A DNA stretch of 64,000 nt from Parcubacteria group bacterium Gr01-1014_29 (lineage in GTDB: Bacteria; Patescibacteriota; Minisyncoccia; Ryanbacterales; 2-02-FULL-48-12), in the NCBI GenBank assembly GCA_007376195.1, contig VMFT01000009.1:11067-75066 (forward strand), read 5' to 3'. Made by a program: the position numbers. Below are positions 24,001 to 27,000 of this stretch, in pieces (the first letter of the stretch is position 1; the number at the start of each line of letters is the position of its first letter).

Positions 24001-27000
24001 CAATACTGCGCGTAGGACCCGGGTACGAGTTTTTTCTTGCCGGGATATATACTTTTTTTGGACATCGCATTTGGGTTGTTTGGATTTTTCACGCGTTGCT
24101 GCGCGTCTTGACGTGCTTTTTCCTCTATAAAATCAGCCTATTTTTATTTTCGGAAGTCCGACTTCCGACTGTCGGAAGTCCGATTTCCGCTACCAAGATT
24201 AGCTTGGTAGCAGTTGCTGTGTATGTCCTGATACCCGACCTTCTTATTGTTAATGGTATGGTACTTGCCGAGACGTTGTTTCTGGCTCTCCTTGTTGGTT
24301 CTCTTTATGTTTCTTTACAAGCGCTGCAAACGTCTCGGTATGCAGATATTGCCTACGCAAGCTTGTGGTGGGGGCTTGCGGCTCTTGTTCGCCCTACTGT
24401 TCTTCCCGTTGTAGTATTGTTTGCTGTGCCGTATATCAAAAGCCTTGATTACAAGAAAGTACTGCTTGTTTTTCTGTTTCCTGTTTTGTTGGTTGGCGGA
24501 TGGTCAGTGCGAAATTCTTTGCTCTATGAAAAACCATTGTTTACCACAACAGCCGGGAGTTTTGCGCTGTTGGTTGGTAATTCGCCGGGCGCTACCGGTG
24601 GGTATGACAAGACACCAGATGTTCAATCAATACTACGCATGCATCATTCTGTAGATATGGGACCTATAGCGCTAAACTGGGTTATGCGTTTTATGGTGAC
24701 GGATCCAGTTGGTTTTCTAGAAGTACAAATCAAAAAAGTAAGTACCTATTTCAGTTTGGTGCGGCCGACAGGTTTTTGGTTTTATCTGATCAATCGTCCC
24801 ATTGAACAGGCAATTACTCTTGTCTATTCGGCGCTCGCGACCACAGTATTATTACTGGCTGGCATAACAGGTTTATTTCATTTCTACGCTCGGCGTGATA
24901 TATCACTTCCTTATGCCAAGTTTTTTATGGGGGCCGCTGTTTTGCAGCCTCTGGTGGTGGTGCCTTTATATGTAGAGACGCGGTATCGCTATCCTCTCTA
25001 CCCCCTGTTAGCCATTTTTACGGCATATGCTATTGTTATGTTTTGGCATGCTAAAAAATTTGCATATCGCAATGAAGACACAAAACAATTGATAAAAGTA
25101 GTCTTTACAGTAACTGGTATTGTGGTTATTTTTACTTTGATTGATACTGCGTATTCATACAATCTTATTATTGATCGCATGAATGAATTCTTTCGTGTAT
25201 TGTAACCTCATTGACCACGCGTAGTAGCATAACGTTATACAAATATGAAGATTCTTGTTACAGGAATTATGGGTTTTATCGGCAGCCATTTTGGTCGTCT
25301 CGCGCTGCAGGGCGGCCATGAGGTTGTTGGGTTTTCACGCCATAGTGATACGCGTAATGCTCAGCGCATTGCTGATTATGTGGGAGATGTTTATTTCCGC
25401 CTTGTCTATGGGGATTTAACCGGAGATATCTCGGGGCTGTTGGAAGGTGCAGATGCTGTTGTACATTTCGCGGCGCGAACGTTTGTTGATCACTCCATAC
25501 TTGATCCGGAGTCTTTTGTCCAATCAAATATCGTGGGTACCTATAAATTACTTGAACAGGCGCGGCGCTATAAGCCGAATATATATGTACAGGTTTCCAC
25601 AGATGAAGTGTATGGCGCAATTTTGGAAGGCTCATACAAGGAGGACGCGCGATTGAATCCAACAAACCCCTATTCTTCCACGAAAGCGGCGGCTGATATG
25701 CTCTGTCTCTCGTATTGGAATACATATAAACTGCCTATCATTATTACGCGCACGGAAAATAATTACGGCCCGTGGCAACATCCGCAAAAAGCAATTCCCG
25801 TGTTTGTAAAAAAAGCTCTTAGAGATGAAAAATTGCCGGTATACGGCGATGGAAAACATCGGCGAATGTGGCTGCATGTGGAAGATCATTGCGGGGCGAT
25901 TTTGCATCTTCTACAACATGGCAATGCGGGAGAGATTTATCATGTGGCGGGAGAAGAAGAACTCGAAAACGTTGAATTGGCAAAACGGATTCTTGACGTG
26001 CTCGGGAAACCGCATGACCTCATCTCGTTTGTACCCGATTATAACATTAGGCCCGGACATGACAGACGTTATGCTTTGGATGTTACGAAACTCCGCGCTA
26101 CGGGGTGGAAGCCAGAACACACACTGCAGGATGGTTTGGAAAAGACAATCATGTGGTATAAAGACAACCCGGAATGGTGCATTTAGATGTTCGAAACCGA
26201 GTTTCGAACAATATGGGAGCAATATGGCAACTAATGTATTAAAAGGCGTTCTTTTGGCGGGGGGAACGGGGTCGCGGCTTGATCCATTAACGCGGATAAC
26301 CAACAAGCACCTGTTGCCGGTATACAATAAACCGATGATTTTCTACGCGCTTGAAACACTGCGTAGAGTTGGCGTGGCTGATGTATTGCTGGTATCCATT
26401 GCGCAAGCTCTCGGCCTTGCCGAAGATTTTTCACGAGGCGGAAATATTGTCGTGATTTTGGGAGACAATATATTTATGCGCCCGGATGAGCTTTGCAGAG
26501 GGATAGCGGGTTTTGCGGACGTGGAGCGCGGCGGGCGGCTATTTTTAAAACATGTTCCCGACGCATCCAGATTCGGCGTAGCTGAAATTGCCGGAGGAAC
26601 GGTTGTCTCGATTGAAGAAAAACCAGAGAATCCGAAAACCGATCTTGCTGTCACGGGTTTTTACGCGTATGATGCGCGCGTCTTTGATATTATTAAAACT
26701 TTGAAACCGTCTGGGCGCGGTGAGCTTGAAATTACGGATGTTAACAACTGGTATATCCGCGAAGGTGTAATGACGCATTATATTATAGAAGGCGAATGGA
26801 CGGATGCGGGAACATTTGATTCGTTGTTTCGCGCTTCCCGGCTGATTGCCGAACAGCAGAGACCGTGAACATATTGTTTTTTACAAAAGGTGATCGTACT
26901 GTTGGCTCAAGCCGCCAACGGGTGTGGCTGCTGGCTGAAAAGTTGAAGGAGCAGTATGGATTTGATTATCGCGTGATACACAGTGTCGCCCACTCTCCGT

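Follow-up and report, generated by a model that had tools for sequence, protein, structure and literature searches.

The 64,000-nucleotide stretch of contig VMFT01000009.1 of Parcubacteria group bacterium Gr01-1014_29 analysed here, hereafter the window, harbors two genes for distantly related GT-C glycosyltransferases, each carrying in frame a pair of short palindromic units. We consider these units likely to be repetitive palindromic (REP) elements, lying inside each gene as a doublet like those known as REPINs, and to belong to a widespread system of Patescibacteria that resembles the pairing of REPs with REP-associated tyrosine transposases (RAYTs); they are called REP units in what follows. 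The features concerned are listed below, no strand being assigned to the repeats.

23811-25205, + strand: host gene, GT-C / family 39 glycosyltransferase (PMT_2-like), 464 aa
24150-24190, no strand: REP doublet, a predicted single long hairpin, net +8 aa in a variable loop of the host protein
24150-24168, no strand: REP unit A, TCGGAAGTCCGACTTCCGA, perfect 19-mer, central C, identical to the family core, translated SEVRLP
24172-24190, no strand: REP unit B, TCGGAAGTCCGATTTCCGC, two mismatches to the 19-mer, translated GSPIS
15483-16655, + strand: host gene of the first locus, distant GT-C paralog, 390 aa
15988-16006, no strand: REP unit of the first locus, perfect 19-mer, central G, translated GSRTS
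16017-16035, no strand: second REP unit of the first locus, perfect 19-mer, central G, translated SEVGLP

Two doublets in two glycosyltransferase genes

Four copies of TCGGAAGTC[C/G]GACTTCCGA occur in the window, one pair at 24150-24190 and another at 15988-16035, and a search of all 64 kb tolerating up to three mismatches returned these four sites alone (eight strand matches), where 100 shuffles gave an expectation of 0.08; the first-pass annotation was therefore right in holding chance to be very unlikely. As it had also described, the 17-nt core CGGAAGTCCGACTTCCG at 24151-24167 is followed, after a spacer of 5 nt, by CGGAAGTCCGATTTCCG at 24173-24189, which differs by one mismatch, the start-to-start distance being 22 nt. 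The 17-nt cores of the first locus occupy 15989-16005 and 16018-16034; their period is 29 nt, and a direct repeat of 23 nt there extends through TGAT. The sequence and position given for the core thus stand, but the 17-mer is not the perfect palindrome it was taken for, since its structure is 8 + 1 + 8 with a central C or G left unpaired; the conserved unit measures 19 nt (T...A), and about 29 nt family-wide. This central base is C in both copies at 24150-24190 and G in both at 15988-16035, and by this base alone the two loci are in opposite orientation. Likewise, the units do form an adjacent, in-frame pair, as the term tandem implied, but because the unit is self-complementary each tandem pair is equally an inverted pair and can fold into one long hairpin, with predicted energies of -41.2 kcal/mol (z = -7.3) for the doublet at 24150-24190 and -46.3 kcal/mol (z = -7.5) for that at 15988-16035. 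The suggestion that the copies might be flanked by target-site duplications was not borne out, as direct reading of the sequence revealed none at either doublet. Single-strand Y1 transposases create no such duplications, and their absence fits the transposase of this family that is associated with the unit in other genomes.

A perfect hairpin with a 9-bp stem, gctaccaag-attag-cttggtagc (24189-24211, no strand assigned), abuts the doublet in gene 23811-25205 and its in-frame translation is ATKISLVA. A rough calculation puts the number of such hairpins expected over all 64 kb at about 1.5, which makes adjacency by chance unlikely; no hairpin of this type was found near REPs at any other locus examined, and its being part of the element is uncertain.

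Both doublets are read through in frame by long + strand open reading frames (ORFs), as FSEVRLPTVGSPISATK in gene 23811-25205, where the in-frame placement had been noted before, and as DIGSRTSDDTPSEVGLPMM in gene 15483-16655. The product of the former matches Pfam PMT_2 with E = 1.7e-4, below the cutoff, and PF13231 is present in its homologs, which bear the name glycosyltransferase family 39. When the two host proteins were compared by BLASTP, the doublet sites fell about 50 residues apart at non-homologous positions; in fact, the unit precedes the conserved ETLF helix in gene 23811-25205 and follows the matching ETIF helix in gene 15483-16655. The REP peptide was found in none of 87 homologs of gene 23811-25205, and in an alignment of 24 sequences all 23 homologs are gapped by 8 aa at the doublet. 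Similarly, 13 homologs of gene 15483-16655 are devoid of the doublet segment, the window protein having a net gain of 11 aa. Since the sites are non-homologous and the homologs are without the segment, a recent gene duplication that already carried the motif, the scenario named as capable of overturning the claim of an independent second locus in another GT-C paralog, is excluded. The closest ortholog of gene 15483-16655, from another species (locus L127), is syntenic, 69.7% identical at the nucleotide level, and has a doublet at the same site, its period being 25 nt, its frames different and the central base of one unit flipped relative to the window.

It may also be asked whether the doublets are a product of chance, of paralog duplication or of an artefact of assembly or adapters. 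Parts of the unit are similar to the adapter 8-mers ATCGGAAG (Illumina) and AAGTCGGA (MGI), and the three assemblies that contain the exact protein, namely this one, one from ENA and one from Logan, may share a single sample. Nevertheless, such an origin can be dismissed with near certainty: it is refuted by the shuffles, by the non-homologous paralog sites and by the family-wide occurrence of the unit, which recurs in frame and at orthologous sites in metagenome-assembled genomes (MAGs) that go back to dozens of independent studies and assemblers.

Gene 15483-16655 stops about 75 residues earlier than any of the 14 homologs aligned with it, is without the conserved C-terminal R..R.RYP region and, compared to its ortholog in L127, is missing about 215 nt; judged by these alignments, it may be truncated or decaying.

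A repeat family and its probable transposase-like partner

The exact 19-mer TCGGAAGTCNGACTTCCGA was found, among the matches listed, in at least 115 stretches of GTDB species representatives and in fact in more than that, nearly all of them from Patescibacteria (Saccharibacteria, Paceibacteria, Nomura-, Wolfe-, Azam-, Uhr-, Doudna-, Lipton- and Jorgensenbacteria), in genomes produced by a variety of studies and assemblers. Of 180 copies, 171 have C or G at the centre, and the few A/T-centred copies, which belong to unrelated phyla, look like chance matches. In the family, whose consensus is AATAT-TCGGAAGTCCGACTTCCGA-ATATT, the apex GGAAGTC[C/G]GACTTCC is invariant and identical across classes, and the outer positions differ yet remain complementary (atat/atat, aaaa/tttt, actg/cagt), the symmetric variants TTGG..CCAA and TAGG..CCTA being found at times beside a TCGG..CCGA copy in the same genome. 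Complementarity at flank positions ±1 to ±3 is far greater than in shuffled controls (z = 10.4, 5.5 and 4.5). In an alignment of 141 copies, covariation scores 0.167, compared with 0.082 ± 0.007 after shuffling (none of 500 shuffles reached 0.167), 85% of the cells are paired, against 29-55% in slid registers, and the lower-stem pairs display 31, 51 and 37 double-sided changes. This covariation argues for a hairpin in single-stranded DNA or RNA, and against a duplex site read by a homodimer.

The typical density is about one copy per 50-100 kb, although up to 8 copies in 6.3 kb are found in L017. Doublets account for 22 of 187 copies, with periods clustering at 21-24, 29 and 33-35 nt, and the window periods of 22 and 29 nt fall in these recurrent classes, the 22-nt period also being found in L047 and L053; the orientation of the central base within doublets is random family-wide, the two loci of the window being CC and GG. 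Copies in long ORFs amount to 31-32%, compared to 66% for random positions, so that genes are depleted of REPs and yet hold about one third of them. These genes have housekeeping functions, encoding PurD, PurH, GatB, UvrB, UvrC, MurC, MurD, CysS, IscS, TsaD and TatD, and there is in addition one for a P-type ATPase. The consensus can be read in any of six frames without meeting a stop codon, and the copies make use of all three frames. Between orthologous pairs, the REP with 4 nt on either side is identical except for a flipped central base, while the flanks are only 65-73% identical; the flip is as expected for loop inversion at a hairpin.

Several of these features would also suit a selected site for a protein that binds or takes up double-stranded DNA, comparable to parS, NBS and matS or to the DNA uptake sequences (DUS) and uptake signal sequences (USS), that evolved in place and of which the transposase-like gene described below would merely be one of the carriers. 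In line with this view, copies occur without length change in PurD, UvrB and GatB, orthologous sites are conserved despite diverging flanks, the density is low in several genomes, copies reside in housekeeping and repair genes, as reported for DUS, and the core is identical across classes, as is parS across phyla. The unit also shares with the DUS of Neisseria, the USS of Pasteurellaceae and HIP1 of cyanobacteria its being read in several frames. However, those signals are 8-12 nt long, occur about once per kb and are accompanied by many near-matches, whereas the Patescibacteria unit spans 19-29 nt, is rare and is all-or-none: with two loci in 64 kb the window is far below the density of USS or DUS, no copies with 3-5 mismatches were found in it, and single half-sites are no more frequent than the palindromes account for. 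Moreover, symmetric stem variants coexist in one genome and the lower stem covaries, which are properties of a hairpin and not of a homodimer half-site; clusters, partial arm copies and doublets of variable spacing resemble a mobile repeat; and the unit has a dedicated transposase-like gene, a Y1 gene for which eight loci display a REP-gene-REP layout. For these reasons an uptake signal or parS was rejected as the principal explanation, and we regard a binding or uptake site as unlikely. No match to the canonical 16-bp parS was found within three mismatches in the window.

The partner gene was found in the dense REP clusters of L017, L084 and L061, each of which contains an ORF of 226-233 aa that matches Pfam Y1_Tnp with 38-40 bits, above the cutoff of 23.

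L017, 3237-3917: RAYT-like ORF
L084, 2832-3527: RAYT-like ORF
L061, 255-956: RAYT-like ORF

A profile built from these three ORFs detected the same gene in five more loci (L034, L080, L104, L112 and L057), its size across the eight ranging from 226 to 246 aa. A REP lies upstream of the ATG in seven of the eight loci (14-32 nt away in six, 63 nt in one), another within the ORF at codon 53-65 in all eight, and a third 13-18 nt past the stop codon in four; this REP-gene-REP layout is the arrangement known for REP-RAYT systems, the REPtron. Homologs are abundant, as 7,748 of 8,000 scored candidates were obtained at E < 1e-10, and most homolog clusters occur on 1-7 contigs. In the top 120, which are 57-76% identical, the HUH motif (NH[FY]H) is present in 119 and the tyrosine motif Y[IV]HxNP in 112. 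The apex translation EVGLP was found, within an otherwise variable loop, in nearly all of the 70 top homologs examined. The REP inside the ORF usually reads xEVGLP, and the corresponding segment of L061 is translated in a different frame, as IGSPTS, which points to a constraint on the nucleic acid and not on the peptide. In a Foldseek search with the AlphaFold model, the top matches were IS608, ISDra2, IS200 and the E. coli RAYT-REP complex (4er8), all with a probability of 1.0 and including transposases bound to DNA hairpins.

In L017 (1-7000, Nomurabacteria JANYAX010000036.1) the RAYT-like gene is adjoined by a diversity-generating retroelement, the cassette of which comprises a reverse transcriptase, a bAvd-like protein and an Lcl_C-type target, with one REP inside the reverse transcriptase ORF. 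The idea raised by this reverse transcriptase, that the unit is the hairpin of such retroelements, was discarded because copies sit in housekeeping genes. TIGR-Tas arrays were also discarded, as the window units are two-unit pairs inside ORFs and not arrays, and so was a phage element, for which no match was found in the viral contigs of IMG/VR.

A hairpin may equally act in RNA, and the repeat might be kept for gene regulation, mainly as a stabiliser of mRNA, a site of processing (by RNase III in its doubled form) or a brake on translation, its spread by a transposase being secondary or historical. The predicted RNA folds are very stable, T-G combinations, which would be U-G wobble pairs, are frequent in the lower stem, and a REP 14-32 nt before the RAYT-like start in six loci together with a REP in the ORF suggests autoregulation; moreover, REPs elsewhere in bacteria affect mRNA stability (PMC3733652). 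On the other hand, the orientation of the central base is not biased with respect to the coding strand, and intergenic copies are spread over tandem, convergent and divergent spacers (57, 11 and 8 copies) as expected from the background (shares of 0.74, 0.11 and 0.15), with no preference for 3' ends or convergent spacers beyond it. Nor does an RNA role explain why the same 15-nt apex is found in unrelated genes, and an Rfam scan of the window and five loci matched no family at the REPs. We therefore find a primary function in RNA improbable, while noting that it is compatible with the explanation preferred here. A terminator was likewise rejected, since the flanks are ATAT-like instead of T-runs and the intergenic copies are at background distribution.

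We favor, as the most probable explanation, a REP-RAYT-like system acting on single-stranded DNA. The palindrome of about 29 nt would fold into a hairpin when the strands are separated, for example at the replication fork, its 7-bp apex GGAAGTC/GACTTCC being read sequence-specifically and its lower stem needing only to pair. Recognition of this hairpin would fall to a dedicated IS200-like Y1/HUH tyrosine transposase, RAYT-like and of about 235 aa, which would copy, seed or homogenise the repeat around the chromosome without creating target-site duplications, thereby moving or maintaining the copies. Because the unit has no stop codon in six frames, copies landing in frame in tolerant loops would survive and be translated, as SEV[R/G]LP, RKSDFR or GS[P/R]TS, and the two doublets of the window would have become lodged in this manner in loops between transmembrane helices of the two GT-C paralogs. 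Their entry could have occurred by insertion, or by overwriting of the same length followed by duplication of the unit.

A number of observations weigh against this explanation. The two described REP superfamilies carry a GTAG or CGTC tag, and the consensus AATATTCGGAAGTCCGACTTCCGAATATT is without either. A profile search found no RAYT-like ORF in the 64-kb window, a Y1 ORF is absent from the window and its contig, and only four REP copies are present, so that for this genome, which presumably encodes a RAYT-like gene outside the window, the link rests on other genomes. The sole NCBIfam match of the RAYT-like protein, REP_Tyr_transpos (NF047646), has 37-39 bits (E ~1e-9), against a cutoff of 80; PDB sequence searches with the protein and its profile found nothing; and the structural model is mediocre (pLDDT 67), the Foldseek E-values being only 2e-3 to 1e-2. 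In addition, the net changes of 0, 0, -2 and +1 aa in PurD, UvrB, GatB and CysS are not predicted by simple transposition. Finally, the window copies are intragenic, whereas classical REPINs are almost exclusively extragenic, with RAYTs that are single-copy and vertically inherited (bioRxiv 10.1101/2021.07.10.451892). Intragenic REPs, among them RPE-4 and RPE-6 of Rickettsia, have already been documented (PMC3733652); more than half are dimers, and repair genes are frequent hosts.

Two sets of genomes deserve separate mention. The MAG H43-bin147_1 (JBBTVT01; L009, L020, L048, L061, L076, L082 and L091) is far richer in REP than is typical, and in it the REP sits in a composite repeat of about 120 nt, cccgcgcccctacaacaacaatttta...aactg-REP-cgatacgatttaaacataacaagggcgaccgcaacggtcgccc, on many contigs. 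Typical C/G-centred, AT-flanked copies are also found outside Patescibacteria labels, in an Omnitrophota MAG (L018, L024 and L087), an Elusimicrobia MAG (L049) and a MAG labelled Gammaproteobacteria (L008, L021, L056 and L099); either these bins are mislabelled or contaminated, or the system reaches beyond the candidate phyla radiation (CPR).

Insertion and possible overwriting in coding genes

In order to understand how the repeat enters coding DNA, net length changes were derived from alignments to homologs, which for the genes outside the window were solved ones.

PurD: net change 0 aa
UvrB: net change 0 aa
GatB: net change -2 aa
CysS: net change +1 aa
PurH: net change about +8 aa
TsaD: net change +9 aa
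Window gene 23811-25205: net change +8 aa
Window gene 15483-16655: net change +11 aa

To these may be added MurD, which appears, when read by eye against other MurD sequences, to gain about 11-20 aa. PurD was inspected by comparing the REP-bearing L019 (7418-7450) with L118, L119, L120, L124, L125 and L126. The segment that separates GIVD and GPT is 10 residues long in all 112 CPR PurD sequences. A REP-less allele that is 90.7% identical to L019 overall matches it in only 14 of the 31 positions of the patch, with no indel, whereas distant REP-bearing alleles, 66-69% identical overall, match it in 29 of 31; in other alleles the mismatches rise stepwise through 7, 11, 13 and 16. In the allele of L124 the stem is kept by a double change, CGG>AGG and CGA>CTA (TAGG..CCTA), at the cost of an R>L substitution. 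For the window site, REP-less strain variants were sought through its left flank in JGI metagenome contigs, where the three matches obtained were all unrelated chance matches.

As far as can be judged from these alignments, some copies are plain insertions and others replace DNA of equal length at sites that were already partly REP-like. The same-length patches may result from templated overwriting, or from allelic recombination that spreads an old REP-bearing allele. In the window, the net gains of 24 and 33 nt compare to doublet lengths of 41 and 52 nt, values that appear to fit overwriting with duplication of the unit and, equally, insertion with loss of a few native codons. We may tentatively hypothesize that, besides inserting, the REP-RAYT system of Patescibacteria also overwrites equal-length coding patches at partly REP-like sites, in a templated writing akin to gene conversion, and has so colonised essential genes (PurD, UvrB, GatB and others) throughout the superphylum, with the REP inside the transposase ORF as a possible master copy or autoregulatory site; this extension is, in our estimate, rather doubtful.

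Relation to known repeats and significance

The Patescibacteria repeat resembles the REP/REPIN-RAYT systems of Enterobacteria and Pseudomonas in being a short repeated palindrome, often in doublets predicted to fold into a longer hairpin, in having a Y1/HUH gene flanked by repeats (in eight loci, in other genomes), in the absence of target-site duplications and in the stronger conservation of the repeats relative to their surroundings. Unlike them, its unit is a symmetric perfect palindrome free of the two tags, and about one third of the copies lie in ORFs, that of the RAYT itself also containing a REP. In contrast to species-specific REPs, the apex is identical across many classes and the copy number is low in most genomes, and the protein, at about 235 aa, scores below the cutoff of the curated NCBIfam model for RAYTs. 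The likeness to RPE-1, RPE-4 and RPE-6 of Rickettsia (PMC3733652) lies in palindromic repeats that are in frame, form dimers, occur in repair and replication genes and are translated into extra loop residues, although sequence and host lineage are unrelated, the present host being of the Parcubacteria group and not of the Rickettsiales. RPEs lengthen the protein, as do the doublets of both window genes, but several Patescibacteria copies replace DNA of equal length. By analogy with IS200/IS605 elements (IS608, ISDra2 and miniature derivatives), with which the Y1/HUH fold and motifs and the lack of duplication are shared, recognition of a single-strand subterminal hairpin would be expected; here, however, there is a single hairpin of 29 nt instead of a left-end and right-end pair around the gene, and no sign of a multicopy transposase gene.

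Other repeats of the window are unrelated in sequence to REP or of another type. Three AT-rich palindromes without spacer, none similar to REP, lie at 12998-13095, 46441-46548 and 41490-41541, with arms of 49, 54 and 26 nt that are 80%, 76% and 88% complementary, respectively. A direct repeat of 109 nt, 83% identical, is found at 60196-60304 and 61584-61692, 1.4 kb apart, and an inverted repeat of 33 nt, TCCGCCAGAGGCGGATCAGCCTCTGGC... (85%), at 52408-52440 and 56241-56273, 3.8 kb apart.

The palindromes of the window are nothing peculiar to the biology of glycosyltransferases. Descriptions of REP-RAYT systems come mainly from Proteobacteria, with repeats that are nearly always extragenic and species-specific, and a full-text search of the literature returned no relevant text on this repeat sequence or on REP/RAYT in Patescibacteria; here the repeat is found in reduced, gene-dense genomes, with one apex common to many classes and a third of the copies within genes, including essential ones. 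If the link with the RAYT-like gene is true, it would explain the odd conserved peptides SEVGLP, RKSDFR and GSPTS in many CPR proteins and offer annotators a marker for them. It would also provide a tractable case in which to study the entry of a hairpin repeat into coding sequences that remain intact, and the long-term retention of a single-copy transposase, together with its repeats, by very small genomes.

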